From: an uncultured Candidatus Saccharibacteria bacterium
Lineage (GTDB): Bacteria > Patescibacteriota > Dojkabacteria > B142 > JAFGMG01
NCBI GenBank assembly: GCA_964391325.1
Contig: CAYMJM010000001.1
Span: forward strand, 1,438 to 65,437
DNA length: 64,000 bases
Reading direction: 5' to 3'
Position numbers and translations under genes: made by a program. Position 1 is the stretch's first letter; each line of letters starts with the position of its first letter. The notes under the pieces are model-generated. The model worked only from the letters and a program-made list of their open reading frames with translations. It did no database searches and was not told where the DNA came from. Shown piece by piece: positions 30,331 to 64,000 of the stretch.

Positions 30331-30676
30331 AACTAATAATAAAAGGTCCGAGTACTCGAACCTTTTTGCTATATTAAGTTTACTCTTTTATTCACTTTCC
30401 TTAAATTTATTTATTAGTTTCTCCACAGCCGCTCTTTTCGAATCTGTTGTAGTTGGAGGCACTGTTTCTGTCTCGCTGGTGCTTGCTGCCTCTTCAGGTA
30501 AATCATTTGGTGAATTATCTATAGGGTCTCCTGCTGCAGGAGGTGGTACCTCAGGTGAAGGTATATTCATCCTAATTTTTTAATATATAATGATTACAAC
30601 ATACCATACTAATTTATTAAATAAAAGACTCTTTACATATATATTAATGTGAATTAGGAATTAGCGAGAAGTGTCG

Positions 30677-31738: not shown

Positions 31739-31815
31739 GCGGCAGTAGTTCAGTTGGCTAGAACGTTTCCTTGCCAAGGAAAAGGTCGCCGGTTCGACCC
31801 CGGTCTGCCGCTCCA
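31739..31815 (+). tRNA. tRNA-Gly(GCC)
   Basis: Acceptor GCGGCAG/CTGCCGC, anticodon stem TTTCC/GGAAA, loop TTGCCAA, T-loop TTCGACC, discriminator U, encoded CCA. Confidence 0.9.
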
Positions 31816-47667: not shown

Positions 47668-47686
47668 AGGTTTGTATTGATAAAAA

Positions 47687-47759
47687 AGCGAACGACGAGA
47701 TTCGAACCCGCGACCTCTTCCTTGGGAAGGAAGCGTTCTACCAACTGAACTACGTTCGC
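47687..47759 (-). tRNA. tRNA-Gly(CCC)
   Basis: Acceptor GCGAACG/CGTTCGC, anticodon stem CTTCC/GGAAG, loop TTCCCAA, T-arm GCGGG-TTCGAAT-CTCGT (two G-U pairs), discriminator U, followed by a T-run. Confidence 0.85.
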
Positions 47760-47805
47760 TTATACCTAGATATTAATACTTTTCCGTTGATTTGAAAAGA
47801 GACTG

Positions 47806-55156: not shown

Positions 55157-57058
55157 ATGTCTAAAATAGTTGGAATTGACCTTGGAACTAGTAACTCCGC
55201 AATAGCCTATGTGACCGGAGGGAAGCCTGAAATAATTGCAAACAAAGAAGGTGGAAGGACAACCCCTTCTGTAATTGCAATATCTTCTGATGCTGTAGAA
55301 GAAATTATTGTGGGCGTGCCAGCCAAGAATCAGATGGTAACAAACCCCGAACAGACTTTCTACTCAATAAAAAGATTGATTGGAAGGAGATGGGATGATC
55401 CGGATATTGAACAAGACAAGAAGCTCCTACCCTTTGAGCTAAGGAAAAGCGGTAAAGGTGGAGTTGAAATAGAATTTGGAAACCAATGGCTTGCTCCAGA
55501 AGCAATTTGTGCCAAAGTACTTGCTAAACTGAAAGCAGATGCTGAGGCTTTCTTGGGTGAAGAAGTTAAGGAAGCAGTGATAACAGTTCCCGCTTACTTT
55601 GATGATTCTCAAAGACAGGCAACCAAAAATGCAGGGAAAATAGCAGGTCTCGATGTAAAAAGAATTATTAACGAGCCTACAGCTGCAGCTCTGGCTTACG
55701 GTCTGGATCAGAAACAGGATCAAAATATTGCGGTCTATGATCTGGGTGGAGGCACGTTTGATATTTCAATTCTCGAAATTGGTGATGGTATATTTGAGGT
55801 TAAGGCCACAAATGGAGATACCCATCTAGGAGGAGATGACTTTGATCAGGAAATAATTGATAGCTTAATCGATGAATTTAAAAAAGACACAGGAATTGAT
55901 TTAAGGAGTGATCCTGCTGCGTTACAGAGGCTTAAAGAAGCAGTTGAAAAGGCAAAAATTACACTGTCAAGCACAGAAAAAACAGAGATTAACTTGCCAT
56001 ACATAACGGCAGACAAAAATGGTCCAAAGCATTTTAGGAAAGAGATGACCCGATCTGATTTGGAAAAATTAGTTTCGGACCTTATTGACAAGACTCTTGA
56101 GCCGTGTAGAAAAGCACTTGTCGACGCAAAACTCTCTGTATCAGATATAGATGAAGTAATTTTAGTCGGGGGAATGACCAGAATGCCACTTATCAAGAAA
56201 AAGGTTGAGGAGTTTTTTGGTAGAAAACCTCATGAAGGTGTAAATCCTGATGAAGTTGTGGCAATTGGAGCAGCTATACAAGGTGCAGTTCTTGCTGGAG
56301 ATGAAAATGTGAAAGACGTCACCCTCCTAGATGTTACTCCGCTAACTTTAGGCTTGGAAACCCTTGGAGGGGTTAGAACACCCTTGATTCCTCGGAATAC
56401 AACTATACCAACAGAAAAATCACAGGTTTTTTCGACAGCTGCCGATAACCAGACAGCAGTAGAAATTCATGTATTGCAGGGAGAAAGGGAGATGGCAAGT
56501 GATAATAAAACTTTAGGAAAATTTATACTTGACGGTATCCCTCCGGCACCAAGGGGGGTTCCTCAAGTAGAAGTTACTTTTAAAATAGATGCTAATGGGA
56601 TACTAAGTGTTTCTGCTAAAGACAAAGCAACAGGTAAAGAGCAAAGCATAACAATCACAGCATCTACTCACATGAGTGAAGATGAAATTGACAAAATGGT
56701 CGAAGAGGCTTCAAAATATGCTGCTGAAGATAAAAAGAAGAAGGAAAGGGTTGAAATCCATAATGTCGCTGATACGTTAGTATTTCAGGTAGAAAAATTT
56801 ATCGAAGAAATGAAAGAAAAATTAGATAATACCGATAAGGAGGAGCTTGAGGAAAAAGCAAAAGAGCTGAAAGAGATAATTAATAAAGAAGACTTCGTTA
56901 ACGAAGATGTAAAAATTAAGACGGAAGAGCTATCAAAGTTACTGCAGCAAAAAGGGGCTAAGATGTACGAAAAAGCATCAAAAGAAGCTGAAGAAGAACA
57001 GAAAGATTCCAAAAGTGAAGAAAAAAGTTCGGAAGCTGAAGAAGGGGAAGTGGTCTAA
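55157..57058 (+). CDS. dnaK: molecular chaperone DnaK (Hsp70)
   Basis: [18 protein letters not shown], full nucleotide-binding and substrate-binding domains, acidic tail. Confidence 0.97.
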
Positions 57059-57071
57059 TAAAACCACAGCA

Positions 57072-57190
57072 CCTCTCGACCCTTCGTTTACACTCAGGAC
57101 TCAAGGCTCAAACTGACACGCTATATTTTGATTTAATATGTCAGTTCGAGCCTGTCGAGACCTTATTTCCCATAGCTAAGGTATGTCGAG
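57072..57190. repeat. structured palindromic repeat element, copy B (inverted relative to copy A)
   Basis: CTCTCGAC ... GGCTCAAACTGACACG - loop - TGTCAGTTCGAGCC ... GTCGAGAC/GTCGAGAG; reverse complement aligns with 30677-30777; sits in the convergent dnaK/nrnA-like intergenic region. Confidence 0.45.
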
Positions 57191-57206: not shown

Positions 57207-58202
57207 TTAGGTACCAAAATATTCTGAGATTTTTTTCCTGGTAAGTGCTAATGCTTCATAGGGGTCATCTGTATCTAATGTGGCACCGGAAGCTGAGTCG
57301 TGCCCTCCACCCCCTAACAGTTCAGCAACTTTTCGCACATTTTGACCATTCATCCTTGATCTAAAGGATACTTTGCATTCTTTGGCATCACTATCAGGAT
57401 TCACTAAGAACCCCCAATTATACCCTTCTCTACCTAGCAAAATATCAATGATTAGATTCTTCAGTATATCCATTTGTGTAGAATTGAGACCAAGCAGATC
57501 ATATACATCTTTAGTAATGTAGCTGTAGGAGTATTTCAGCTGCTCATCAAACTTAAGATTGTTTATAATTACCTTAGCTGCGTTAAGTACAGGTTCATCG
57601 TACGATTTAATTTTTTCGGCTATTTCTGACGCTACAGCACCATTCTCAATTAACTTCGCTACAATTTCGAAAGTATTCTTATTAACTGTCTTGGTAGAAA
57701 AGCCATTTGTATCATCGTAGATCCCTGCTAGAAGCGCTTTTGCTGTCTGAACGCTAAAGTCTACATGCTCCTGGAATAGCTCAAAGACGATCTCACTAGT
57801 CGAAGGATAATTCTTACGAACATATAAAACTGCTTCCAAATCAGATTCGTAGATGTGATGATCTATTACAACTACTTTTTGTTCTGGCTGTAGAGGAAAG
57901 TCTCCTTTTGTTATTCTAGATTTTCTGTTTGCGTCGAGCACTATTATTAAGTCAAATTTCTGCGTAAAAACAGAATCTGATAAATTGGCTTGAATGATCC
58001 TCTTAGTACCTTCTAAAAATGAATAAGCGTGAGGGGGTGAGTCCTCTACAGCCATAGTTATCTCTTTATCTTTAAATCCTTTAAGAATCCAATATAGTCC
58101 GACCATAGATCCAATAGCATCAAAATCATGGTTAAGATGCGTGGTAAGCAATATATTAGCTGATTGATTAATGGTCTCTATTAATTCTTTACTTTCTTGC
58201 AT
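57207..58202 (-). CDS. DHH/DHHA1 phosphoesterase (NrnA-like oligoribonuclease / pAp phosphatase)
   Basis: DHH motifs (HLNHDFDAIGS; DHH at about 115), DHHA1 GGGGH. Confidence 0.75.
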   Translation of the reverse strand: MQESKELIETINQSANILLTTHLNHDFDAIGSMVGLYWILKGFKDKEITMAVEDSPPHAYSFLEGTKRIIQANLSDSVFTQKFDLIIVLDANRKSRITKGDFPLQPEQKVVVIDHHIYESDLEAVLYVRKNYPSTSEIVFELFQEHVDFSVQTAKALLAGIYDDTNGFSTKTVNKNTFEIVAKLIENGAVASEIAEKIKSYDEPVLNAAKVIINNLKFDEQLKYSYSYITKDVYDLLGLNSTQMDILKNLIIDILLGREGYNWGFLVNPDSDAKECKVSFRSRMNGQNVRKVAELLGGGGHDSASGATLDTDDPYEALALTRKKISEYFGT

Positions 58203-59595: not shown

Positions 59596-59975
59596 TTTTA
59601 ATCAGTAATAAATATTCTAATGTTAGGGTGAATTACCATCCTATGAGAGTAAAAAGTCCCTTATATAATCTAACACAGACCACTGCATTTAGGCTAGATA
59701 ATATAAGGGACCCAGTTAATCAATTAGACTCCTCGTAATCTTTGATGCTCAACTAAAATTGTTTCAATTAAGCATCACATGTCGACGATAGTGAATTGAA
59801 CGGGCGGTTCCACCCTACTTTCCATTCTCGCTAGAGTGTCACTTTGGAGCGAACAATGGACAAGCCCTATAATAATAGGACGACTTTTGAACGATATTAA
59901 ATTGTCTCCAATACTTTTGCTGATTTTCACTGTAACTCAGCTCACTTAATAAATTCTAGCACAAGCTAGGATCAG
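59596..59975 (-). promoter_or_regulatory. T-box-like leader (glycine-specific candidate) with expanded antiterminator and downstream intrinsic-terminator hairpin
   Basis: On the minus strand: AAAGUAGGGUGGAACCGCCCG (complement of 59801-59820) against the T-box consensus AAUUAGGGUGGNACCGCG; UGGA would pair with the UCCA 3' end of tRNA-Gly (discriminator U); terminator GGGUCCCUUAUAU-loop-AUAUAAGGGAC-UUUUU (59651-59715) overlaps the predicted antiterminator 3' strand. Confidence 0.55.
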
Positions 59976-61480: not shown

Positions 61481-64000
61481 TTAAGGATTTGGCGTAAATC
61501 TCACATCATTACCTCCACCTGAGATAACTCGAATGAAGTAACCTTGTTTTTCCAATAAGTTGAAGTCATTTCCGAAAAGAATATCTCCCTCATACACAAC
61601 ATTTGTGTAGAGGCTGCTATCATATTTTGATACTGTATCAGCTGTGATTCCTTTAGATTTCATATCTTTTAGCAAATTTTCAGCTGTATATTGCTTTTCA
61701 TTGGTATAAACCCCAACTAAGTTCCATCCGTTGCTTACCCTGAAAGGCACAGGTTCGTCAAACCTGTTTCCCTGTAAATTTACAGTTGCTACTTGATAGT
61801 TTAAGACGAAGTATCCCTGTCCGGGTATTATATTAAAATCATTCGAGTATTCGATATCGCCTTCTCTTTTTGTATACATCTGAAATCCAGAGTCTGTGTA
61901 TCTGGCTATGTGCTTAATATCCGCACCTTGTTCATTAAAATGATCTATCAATTTACTTGCGGTATCAATACTCTGATTAGAAATAACTGGAAATGCTATC
62001 AAGCTCCAGCCGAGATTCAAATTATACGTGGCGACCTCAGATTCTTTTTTTATTTGAAGCTGGGTGTAGTCGATAAAGTATTCCTCGTCTGCATCTTTTA
62101 TACCATTTGCGTTAGCATCGATAAATAGTCTGATTTCAGCTTTTTGAGAGCCTTCGAGGTTTACAGCTACTTCCGAAATAGATTGTTCAAAAGTATCGTC
62201 TGTATATATCTTATAAAAACCTGATTCCCCTACCTCCAGCTTGGCATCGCTATCTCCTAGCACCTGAGTGGATGCCACGGATACCACTGAGTCTTTTGGT
62301 TCTGGATTATACCCCTGATCTGGCAAAGGAGAATCCGAAAAAGGATTGCATGCAGGACCGTTAGTATTGGCCAGGTTACTTCTGTCCTCTTCACACTGAC
62401 CATCACCATCTGCATCTCTGATCCTTATGAGCTCTGTTGGGCTCCCGTTATTGTAATATAGTCTACCAATATAAGCTCTCTGGTTACATTCTTTCCATTC
62501 GCATTGTCTACTTTCAGGTAGCATACTAGGCATATTAAATTCCCTTCTGTCCTTGCACTCGTATCTTCTGTCTGTTACTACTACTTCGCTTAAATCCAGT
62601 GGATTACATATAAGTTCGCCAGTATCAGATAAAGAGGTATTCTTTACTATACGAAGGGTACCTTCATGGCAAATCAGTAAATTTAGTGGTAAATAAATGC
62701 CACTTTCCTCAACCTTACACATGTTTACGGGAGAGTTAATCGACTGACTTGGTGTGCTTGCACTGCCCGTTTCTGGCACAACATTCCCAGACCCGTCATC
62801 TAGAGGTGGGCTGTTGCTACCAGTCTGACTGGAACCGGTAGATGGAGGTTGACTGCTAGACTGTCCTGTGTCTGATGCAGGTGTCTCTGTAGCAGATTTT
62901 TCTCCGCACCAGCAGTATGCATCATTTTTATAGGCCCCCCATGATAAACCACAGGCAGAATTTGACCCTGGTTCTCCACTGCGGCACCTGTCCGCGGCTA
63001 TACAACCCACATTGTGAAAATATAAATAGCCTGGAGCGCACTTTTTGCTAGAACTCTGCTCTTGAGTCTGTGCTGCAGGTTGAGTCTGACCCTGTGTCTG
63101 TCCTTGGTTCTTTTTAACACAATCCTCTCGCTCGAAACAGTTTCCATACTGGGCGTAGTGCTGCCATTGCCCGTCGACACATTGATACATTAAGCAATCA
63201 CTTTGCGAGTTACAGTGAAAGGACTCATCCTCTGCCCAACCATGGCATTTATTCCCGGCTGACACAGTTGGAATGAGGGAGCTATAAGATGTTTTAACTA
63301 TTTCTCGTTCGACTATAAACTGATCAGCAGGTTTGTCGTATTGAGGATTAATATCATAGGTTAAACTACTGCCATTCTCATTCATTACCGTAAATTGCTC
63401 GATATCAGTTTCTTCATTGATCTCTAGATATTTCTGAAGGGCCACATCCTTTAGGGTATTTACATCTAAACTCCACGTAGCTTTCTCAGAAATATAATTT
63501 GATATGACTTGGCTTTTGATTGCGCCATCTTTATCTTTTACAACCATCTTTACAATAGCCTCTTTAGGTAAGGAGTCATCTGGATACTTTACATTTCCGT
63601 AAGCTGGATCAGGTAGTCTGAGCTCCTCTGTAACAGTGGGGGTGGTAAAGGAAACAAGTTTATTATCAAAAGCATCTTTATCTGTCGTTCCTAGTCCGCT
63701 TGCAATCCTAAATTGGTACTCAGTTTCTGGCTTTAAGGCTCTTACAGTAACATGATGCGTCCTACGCTCCTGGGAGCCAGACTCTTTTAATACATACATC
63801 CCTTCATTATTTTGCACCATATCTCTGTCATCATGGAAAGCTTCCAGACCGCGTTTAGACAAAACAGGTAATTTAGACCATGTGCCTTCTGATTTCTCGC
63901 GGACATAGACAATTCCTTCGCTTGGCTCATCGGTGTACCAGGTTATGGTAACACCTGAATCTGTAAGATTTGTGATATCAATATATTTGGGGGATACTGT
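61481..64000 (-). CDS. large secreted/cell-surface protein (FN3-like N-terminal modules, Cys-rich core, S/T/P/Q-rich linker, two C-terminal about 100-aa repeats); 5' end lies beyond the window
   Basis: ORF is open to the window edge with no stop upstream of 63862; FN3-like GVTITWYTDEPSEGIVYV and ETEYQFRIASG; low-complexity QGQTQGQTQ / SSQPPSTGSSQTGS; repeated GNDFN(I/L)...QGYF blocks. Confidence 0.6.
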   Translation of the reverse strand, partial: TVSPKYIDITNLTDSGVTITWYTDEPSEGIVYVREKSEGTWSKLPVLSKRGLEAFHDDRDMVQNNEGMYVLKESGSQERRTHHVTVRALKPETEYQFRIASGLGTTDKDAFDNKLVSFTTPTVTEELRLPDPAYGNVKYPDDSLPKEAIVKMVVKDKDGAIKSQVISNYISEKATWSLDVNTLKDVALQKYLEINEETDIEQFTVMNENGSSLTYDINPQYDKPADQFIVEREIVKTSYSSLIPTVSAGNKCHGWAEDESFHCNSQSDCLMYQCVDGQWQHYAQYGNCFEREDCVKKNQGQTQGQTQPAAQTQEQSSSKKCAPGYLYFHNVGCIAADRCRSGEPGSNSACGLSWGAYKNDAYCWCGEKSATETPASDTGQSSSQPPSTGSSQTGSNSPPLDDGSGNVVPETGSASTPSQSINSPVNMCKVEESGIYLPLNLLICHEGTLRIVKNTSLSDTGELICNPLDLSEVVVTDRRYECKDRREFNMPSMLPESRQCEWKECNQRAYIGRLYYNNGSPTELIRIRDADGDGQCEEDRSNLANTNGPACNPFSDSPLPDQGYNPEPKDSVVSVASTQVLGDSDAKLEVGESGFYKIYTDDTFEQSISEVAVNLEGSQKAEIRLFIDANANGIKDADEEYFIDYTQLQIKKESEVATYNLNLGWSLIAFPVISNQSIDTASKLIDHFNEQGADIKHIARYTDSGFQMYTKREGDIEYSNDFNIIPGQGYFVLNYQVATVNLQGNRFDEPVPFRVSNGWNLVGVYTNEKQYTAENLLKDMKSKGITADTVSKYDSSLYTNVVYEGDILFGNDFNLLEKQGYFIRVISGGGNDVRFTPNP

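Follow-up and report, generated by a model that had tools for sequence, protein, structure and literature searches.

On the minus strand of the 64,000-nt stretch of an uncultured Dojkabacteria genome analyzed here (positions 1,438 to 65,437 of contig CAYMJM010000001.1, hereafter the window; ~37% guanine plus cytosine, which is low), the genes for RecO and a cytidylate-kinase-like protein are followed by an intergenic leader, glyS and a gene for a DHH phosphoesterase. The leader comprises 383 nt (59978-59596) between the stop codon of the cytidylate-kinase-like open reading frame (ORF; 59979) and the ATG of glyS (59595). A sequence-only reading of the same DNA had located it correctly upstream of a glycyl-tRNA synthetase (GlyRS) gene, at a length of 380 nt, and had taken it for a T-box riboswitch of glyQS; the gene in fact encodes a single-chain, alpha2-type GlyRS and not a glyQ/glyS pair. 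Homologues of this enzyme are annotated as glycine--tRNA ligase, the closest named ones being from Candidatus Dojkabacteria, and the gene order around glyS is the same at the closest relative compared (78% GlyRS identity; L081, where L plus a number denotes a glyS locus used for comparison). As a whole the leader folds with z = -5.3, and a 51-aa ORF within it (59775-59930) was judged spurious, being unconserved and the L081 leader being far shorter. From its elements, alternative folds, homologues and covarying pairs, we posit that the leader is probably a glycine-specific T-box riboswitch of non-standard build that regulates glyS by transcription attenuation.

Antiterminator, terminator and related leaders

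All elements quoted in the sequence-only reading are present on the minus strand, with small corrections. The 5' half of the antiterminator holds a conserved T-box sequence (AAnnnGGGUGGNACCGCG-like), of which GGUGGAACC is invariant in 14 leaders, and next to the bulge A2 has a G.U wobble pair, as is usual for T-boxes (PMC11404447). Through a common strand (59714-59706) the antiterminator and an intrinsic terminator are mutually exclusive (Table 1). The terminator stem is an interrupted one of 18 bp (11 + 7 bp around a 1 x 1 mismatch) that closes an 18-nt loop with a small 4-bp hairpin, and at -26.3 kcal/mol (z = -6.0) it is matched in stability by 0/200 shuffles. Thermodynamically, the minimum free energy (MFE) structure of the full-length RNA is the terminator state (-61.2 kcal/mol, versus -45.1 kcal/mol with the antiterminator enforced), and that of an RNA ending at CCCUU, folded without constraint, is the antiterminator with its bulge free (-34.7 kcal/mol). 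The A1 pairing and the shared-strand competition proposed earlier are thus borne out by folding energies and also by the relatives. Just 5' of the T-box sequence lies stem III, followed by AAAGUA as flanking purines; it is longer than its counterparts in relatives and folds at -9.6 kcal/mol (z = -1.9). The T-box motif GGTGGNACC has two exact matches in the 64 kb, and the other one, at 30542 (GGTGGTACC), was rejected as a second T-box since it is without T-box context; a 9-mer pattern with one mismatch allowed is no more frequent in the window than expected by chance. In the bulge, UGGA is complementary to the discriminator U73 of both tRNA-Gly genes in the window, as had been claimed, in keeping with UGGN/NCCA pairing. 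In the tRNA-Gly(CCC) gene, U73 is followed by UUUUU.

The glyS loci for comparison came from scans of genome and metagenome collections, which yielded mostly distant lineages (close among the matches listed: L001, L002 and L086), and from exact-protein look-ups; L083 duplicates L082, and L168 is the same contig as L086. At at least 12 distinct loci, all from related and mostly Dojkabacteria-like Patescibacteria, a T-box core with the window's order of elements lies upstream of glyS or of one to two small genes in front of it, and every relative has a long hairpin and a U-run at the leader end, overlapping the A1 3' strand. The L086 leader is canonical, with a complete stem I, a K-turn and a AAAUGGCA specifier (GGC-A), and the compact, 209-nt L081 leader has the same stem I hairpin as the window, then UUGGAA, stem III, AAUUAGGGUGGAACC-ACGG-(10 nt)-CCGU-CCCUU and a terminator. 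Against the Rfam family RF00230, L086 scored 55.7 bits (E = 1.6e-9), L116 43.3, L081 40.6, and L055, L140 and L082 23.5-28.2; a permissive alignment of the window leader to the same model recovers the correct order of AG bulge, distal loop and GGGUGGAACC. Every leader found, relatives included, scores below the gathering threshold, and routine annotation would therefore overlook them all.

R1, a covariance model trained on the antiterminator modules of seven relatives and not on the window, picked up six members outside its training set (21-41 bits) and had its top match in the window at 59822-59796 (21.1 bits, E = 2.6e-4); its second match (55242-55273) falls within dnaK coding sequence and was taken as chance. 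MAFFT lost the register of the UUGG motif and of the A1 and A2 3' strands across the variable loops, hence covariation was assessed on fixed-length cores with the apical loops excised, and R1 was built from an in-frame subset of seven sequences. Over 14 leaders, 88% of the antiterminator cells pair and 7/9 pairs change on both sides, giving a score of 0.60 versus 0.27 for shuffled alignments (0/500 reach it) and at most 0.17 for slid registers, a score that carries some bias towards pairing from a register set by eye and from the loop excision. The comparison with related glyS leaders that the sequence-only reading had called for thus upheld its T-box identification, in both homology and covariation.

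Departures from this pattern occur within the clade. The L171 leader (L171:800-945) is kept with a variant bulge, UGGGACA, in which the G would form a wobble with U73, and this bulge region was missed by the motif scans and by R1. At the more distant L140 (L140:1800-1960), CCCUAAGG is followed by AAGGGAGAAGG and AUG, and the leader looks translational, as the ribosome-binding site might be masked by the A1 3' strand, which would then not form a terminator. No T-box lies upstream of glyS at L001 (L001:790-957), a Dojkabacteria metagenome-assembled genome with 65% GlyRS identity. In several relatives the T-box does not directly precede glyS: a GNAT acetyltransferase (L165:1876-2418), a DUF3800-like protein (L084:1949-2914), a 170-aa probable membrane protein (L086:1415-1930) or two small ORFs (L172:1069-1984) intervene, so that the glycine T-box would control small operons there.

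Table 1. Positions of the leader elements, the downstream gene and the tRNA-Gly genes in the window (empty cells: no remark)
Feature	Position	Strand	Basis or remark
-35-like hexamer TTGATT, overlapping the upstream stop codon	59977..59982	-	promoter scan; same arrangement in L081
Extended -10 element TGCTAGAAT	59953..59961	-	promoter scan
AG-bulge motif AGUGA	59942..59946	-	Rfam RF00230 alignment to AGAGA positions; AG[U/C][G/A]A in 8 leaders
Distal stem I hairpin GCUGA/UCAGC, 13-nt loop GUUACAGUGAAAA (59936-59924) with second T-loop UGAAA	59919..59941	-	
Candidate specifier GGA (Gly), then G, in single-stranded tract AAAAGUAUUGGAGACAA, 9 nt past distal helix	59907..59909	-	
Purine-rich linker CAAAAG before the stem III region	59884..59889	-	CAAAAG(U/C)G kept in relatives; matches Rfam consensus AAAGuG
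Extra small hairpin CCUAU-UAUU-AUAGG	59866..59879	-	MFE folds; not in L081 leader
Stem III: 11 bp, one bulge, 15-nt loop	59822..59859	-	folding; same place as stem III of relatives
T-box sequence AAAGUAGGGUGGAACCGCCCG	59801..59821	-	sequence; best window match of R1
Helix A1, AGGG with CCCU	59816-59813 with 59709-59706	-	
7-nt bulge UGGAACC	59812-59806	-	
Helix A2, GCCCG with UGGGU	59805-59801 with 59714-59710	-	
Local hairpin GGGUG/CGCCC, -6.4 kcal/mol	59802..59815	-	folding; seen in window leader only
Insertion in A2 apical loop, 86 nt, between GCCCG and UGGGU	59715..59800	-	folding, comparison
A2 and A1 3' strands (UGGGU, CCCU), common to terminator 5' arm	59706..59714	-	folding; core covariation over 14 leaders
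Intrinsic terminator: hairpin 59711-59656, UUUUU 59655-59651	59651..59711	-	folding
glyS, presumed regulated gene; single-chain (alpha2-type) GlyRS, 463 aa	58204..59595	-	Pfam tRNA-synt_2b and HGTP_anticodon
tRNA-Gly(GCC), U73, CCA encoded; candidate ligand	31739..31815	+	
tRNA-Gly(CCC), U73, CCA not encoded	47686..47760	-	

Stem I, predicted promoter and specifier

The distal platform of stem I is present in the window leader, its AG bulge and its UGAAA loop agreeing with the T-loop consensus sequences (AGAGA-like AG bulge and UGxRA; PMC7583486). In the distal helix, 5/5 pairs covary among six distinct sequences, with 96.7% of cells paired and a score that 0/500 shuffles reach. Eight platform-type leaders (the window, L081, L082, L084, L165, L167, L171 and L116) have a common layout of AG[U/C][G/A]A, a helix of 5-6 bp, a UGxRA loop, 6-12 unpaired nt and WWUGG(A/C). 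Together with the canonical L086, in which a homologous WWUGG(A/C) also occurs 6-12 nt after the hairpin, these leaders provide a GGA or GGC specifier upstream of glyS in 9/9 cases. The sequence-only reading had proposed two specifiers, and the choice falls on GGA in UAUUGGAG/UAUUGGAGACAA, which aligns with the WWUGG(A/C) of the nine related leaders; GGC in UAGGGCUUG was rejected, as it sits in the extra hairpin that L081 lacks. Weak hairpins that would present GGA in a loop were likewise rejected (4-5 A-U pairs, the codon on the wrong side of the loop, inconsistent across leaders).

That reading had also assumed a normal stem I, and here the evidence points elsewhere, to a stem I without its 5' proximal strand and K-turn. 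The promoter scan returned TTGATT, an 18-nt spacer and TAGAAT with TG, and the predicted transcription start (~59948-59946) falls directly before the AG-bulge motif. In 7/8 of the platform-only (type-b) leaders, TGnTAnnAT ends 6-10 nt upstream of the AG motif, L084 having TTGACA-17-TAAACT; the background chance of an extended -10 is 0.009 per site, and 0/200,000 resamples reach the observed sum. When the 40 nt upstream were compared with the strand 3' of the codon in seven leaders, no complementarity above that of shuffles was detected for a 5' partner strand, and in the L086 control the same comparison detected the K-turn helix (-10.1 kcal/mol). Neither a K-turn (GA motif) nor a closed specifier loop is found in the window leader, where the extended -10 element occupies that position. 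The Rfam alignment of the proximal part of L116 contains six non-canonical pairs, and the segment from the codon to CAAAAG has a length (14-21 nt) comparable to the 17 nt in L086, but is A-rich and unpaired. Given the promoter prediction and the absent pairing, we infer that the RNA begins at the platform hairpin and that stem I lacks the 5' proximal strand, the K-turn and the closed specifier loop.

The opposite form of stem I also occurs among the relatives. Leaders with a very short stem I at L169 (L169:1800-1990), L172 (L172:880-1070), L041 (L041:2330-2500) and possibly L170 (L170:90-290) carry a K-turn-like GUUGA...UGAG around a short helix and a GGC-A codon in the terminal loop, without a distal platform or an evident stem II, and end in a terminator with a U-run. 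Such proximal-only leaders with terminators are unusual, since a review that asks whether any T-box works without a K-turn calls the distal platform essential in transcriptional T-boxes (PMC7583486). Of the two departures from the textbook form, the apparent absence of the stem I proximal half across the clade is more novel than the insertion in helix A2.

The A2 insertion and alternative readings

The A2 tip encloses a very large insertion, as the sequence-only reading had noted, which measures 86 nt (59800-59715) in place of the ~75 nt given there. It is structured, again as proposed, with the correction that the 3' arm quoted as AAUUGAAC is really AAUUGAAAC and that in the best fold the partner of UUCAAUU is AAUUGA, close to the other end of the insert. 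The fold is a self-contained rod that brings both ends together (-25.7 kcal/mol, z = -5.0; 0/200 shuffles as stable), built of this closing helix and a dominant central 16-bp hairpin (59776-59744). Relatives have A2 loops of 4-24 nt: 4 nt in L084 and L055, 6-7 nt in L167, L165 and L086, ~9-12 nt in L082, L081 (10 nt, CAAAUCACGA), L116, L170 and L172, and 24 nt in L169; L041 and L140 have extended A2 hairpins. No relative, L081 and L082 included, has the insertion, and nothing similar in sequence was found in ~170 loci; with a single copy in the window and none in those loci, the insertion was also rejected as a repeat or mobile element. Two assemblies made independently from other samples (L173 and L174) match the leader at 100%, the leader being recorded in SRR8925734 and SRR7082976, so that the insertion cannot be put down to assembly error.

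In other strains the expansions sit at different apical loops, and the window itself has, besides the A2 rod, the extra hairpin (59879-59866) and a long stem III. In L082 (74% identical; L082:2700-2845 and L082:2880-2975), stem III exceeds 100 nt and the terminator loop holds an insert of ~70 nt with its own 13-bp hairpin, the A2 tip being short. The simplest reading of the insertion is lineage-typical growth at structurally permissive tips. It is real, structured and strain-specific, and the earlier claim that it goes beyond described T-boxes holds for its size and not for its kind, making it a larger example of known variation: A2 insertions have been described in translational T-boxes (PMC7583486), and the 42-nt stem Sa in the A2 helix of staphylococcal glyS T-boxes escaped standard detection (PMC9177973).

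Functionally, we infer a course of regulation in which transcription would start from the extended -10 promoter (59961-59953) immediately ahead of the AG-bulge motif. First to fold would be the distal hairpin of stem I, its T-loops AGUGA and UGAAA forming a platform that would stack on the tRNA elbow, and GGA (59909-59907), 9 nt downstream in an open, A/U-rich strand, would pair with the anticodon, most likely that of tRNA-Gly(UCC). The extra hairpin, stem III and the T-box sequence would follow. If the tRNA is uncharged, its 3' UCCA could pair with UGGA in the 7-nt bulge and stabilize the antiterminator, which would keep the CCCU/UGGGU strand from the terminator (59711-59651) and allow glyS to be transcribed; a charged tRNA would be unable to pair, and the far more stable terminator would form. 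The 86-nt rod would leave the A2 strands adjacent in space and ~90 nt apart in transcription time, while the local hairpin GGGUG/CGCCC would mask part of the bulge. A wider proposal, which we regard as possible and put forward tentatively, is that a clade of the Candidate Phyla Radiation, the Dojkabacteria and neighbouring lineages, uses transcriptional glycine T-boxes that start at the double T-loop hairpin and read the codon in an open strand, without K-turn, S-turn or closed specifier loop, and that in the window strain the A2 rod and GGGUG/CGCCC act as a co-transcriptional delay that offsets slower tRNA capture.

Several observations weigh against an intact, tRNA-sensing T-box in the window, in addition to the bias in the covariation register. 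The Rfam search that had been proposed as a check gave no match at the gathering score (10.5 bits, where the cutoff is 93; E = 7.8 over 601 nt), a result that formally speaks against a T-box and that the homologues outweigh; the window leader is missed by annotation apparently through its 86-nt insertion and its apparent lack of the lower half of the decoding stem. The local hairpin, which arises since GCCC, the A2 5' strand, can pair with the 5' strand of A1, masks the U-G of UGGA until the distal strands are made, and its probability is ~1 in the nascent RNA before the A2 3' strand exists. The Rfam and R1 covariance models both close A1 on an adjacent CCC and not on the distal CCCU, and in a fold of the RNA spanning the predicted start to CCCUU the antiterminator has P ~0, a long-range prediction of a type that is unreliable. 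The tRNA-Gly(UCC) predicted by the GGA specifier is not present in the window, the transcription start is a prediction by promoter rules that may not hold in this phylum, and the three copies of the leader are identical and so carry no information on selection on the insertion. The local hairpin itself might signal decay, or it might be a transient that does no harm or even protects.

The insertion could be a functional module that contacts the tRNA acceptor arm or tunes isoacceptor choice, or a timer that gives a weakened stem I more time for capture by delaying completion of the terminator after the bulge has been made. It lies at the same site as stem Sa, which affects read-through and isoacceptor discrimination (PMC9177973), is highly structured, and coincides with the unique local hairpin, which would protect the T-box strand during the delay; enlarged A2 tips, moreover, recur in the clade, as those of L169, L041 and L140 illustrate. 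We nevertheless find such a module rather doubtful, as the insertion is absent from the closest relative, L081, with the same type of stem I, and has no sequence relatives, and as different strains expand different apical loops (stem III and the terminator loop in L082), which looks like neutral growth.

A second alternative is that the leader is the relic of a decaying T-box, in which the insertion and the GCCC change that created the local hairpin disabled tRNA sensing and glyS is expressed by leaky read-through or from a weak downstream promoter. The dominance of the local hairpin over UGGA in nascent folds, the antiterminator missing from the full-context fold, the distal pairing missed by covariance models and an insertion conserved in no relative would all fit, as would the complete loss of the T-box in at least one relative, L001. 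A -10-like TAGAAT between the terminator and the glyS start codon (59619-59614, minus strand) could also permit low constitutive expression that bypasses the switch, but this hexamer has no TG extension and no convincing -35 (2/6 matches) and was not called by the promoter scan. We consider decay unlikely, given that the complementarity of A2, with its canonical G.U pair by the bulge, and of A1 is intact across the insertion, that the ends of the insertion meet in its fold, and that the A1-to-A1 element, taken alone, adopts the antiterminator fold. Consensus is likewise kept in stem I, the specifier and the bulge, and a terminator of this strength, with its five U residues, would be hard to tolerate, if uncountered, before an essential single-copy synthetase gene. 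Chance resemblance, by which an ordinary long 5' untranslated region would combine a terminator-like hairpin with a fortuitous GGGUGGAACC, could appeal to the non-significant Rfam match and to the one-mismatch 9-mer being no commoner than chance, but is refuted by the homologous leaders before the orthologous gene at the related loci, with significant T-box scores and covariation, and by the preserved order and spacing of six independent T-box elements.

Two further features were noted around the locus. An inverted repeat of 15 bp (57104-57153; 93% complementary, 20-nt spacer) between the convergent dnaK (ending at 57058) and DHH (ending at 57207) genes is probably their shared bidirectional terminator. 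Upstream of recO, a 793-aa ORF (61481-63862, minus strand) has only a weak purple-acid-phosphatase N-terminal match, and its counterparts in relatives range from 952 to >1200 aa, pointing to a large, variable and poorly characterised protein.

Known T-boxes and meaning for the clade

T-boxes are textbook riboswitches of Firmicutes and Actinobacteria, and full-text searches of one literature collection returned no paper on T-boxes in the Candidate Phyla Radiation or Patescibacteria. The window leader most resembles in its order of elements, which is the same, the Class I glycine T-boxes of Bacilli (glyQS of Bacillus subtilis, glyQ of Geobacillus kaustophilus and Oceanobacillus iheyensis; RF00230). 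With these it has in common the double T-loop platform, a Gly specifier, a purine-rich linker without stem II, stem III, the T-box sequence, a 7-nt UGGN bulge topped by a G.U pair (UGGA here, matching U73), the competition of antiterminator and terminator, the U-tract, and a glycyl-tRNA synthetase as target. Unlike them, it is without a K-turn, an S-turn GAA and a 5' strand to close the specifier loop, has GGA where GGC is usual, carries an extra hairpin before stem III and an A2 tip of 86 nt instead of a few nt, precedes an alpha2-type GlyRS gene and not glyQ/glyS, and scores far below the family cutoff.

The staphylococcal glyS T-box with stem Sa (Apostolidi 2015; Giarimoglou 2022, PMC9177973) is similar in its alpha2 GlyRS target, its lack of stem II, its poorly conserved stem I and its lineage-specific structured A2 insertion, on account of which it is missed by standard tools. 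Stem Sa, however, is 42 nt long and conserved in all staphylococci, whereas the window insert is 86 nt long, occurs in one strain and has no detected sequence likeness to it; the staphylococcal stem I is also closed. Actinobacterial translational ileS T-boxes with an ultrashort stem I (Sherwood 2015; PMC7583486) have a drastically reduced stem I too, and insertions in stem III and helix A2 are frequent among ultrashort-stem I T-boxes (PMC7583486). Those of ileS lost the distal platform and kept the K-turn and specifier loop, whereas the window leader shows the opposite truncation; they are translational and stem II-dependent, whereas it has a terminator and no stem II. Neither a missing platform nor Shine-Dalgarno sequestration, as in the ultrashort type, is thus seen in the window, where the platform and a terminator with a U-tract are present. 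Some known glycine T-boxes also work without a recognisable GA motif or specifier-loop GAA, but these keep a base-paired lower stem I, for which the window leader has no detectable partner strand and a promoter in its place.

Evolutionarily, the clade offers natural test cases before one and the same gene, in the form of leaders with the platform alone, leaders with the proximal half alone and a terminator, and canonical ones. If the reading given here is true, the canonical and ultrashort sister leaders would make up a natural dissection series of stem I, in which the platform-only form would mirror the actinobacterial ultrashort stem I. The 86-nt expansion would show how large an RNA load the A2 tip can carry and could provide a natural construct for the kinetic control of antitermination. 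For the organism itself, the leader suggests that tRNA-charging feedback on an essential synthetase has been retained in a reduced genome.

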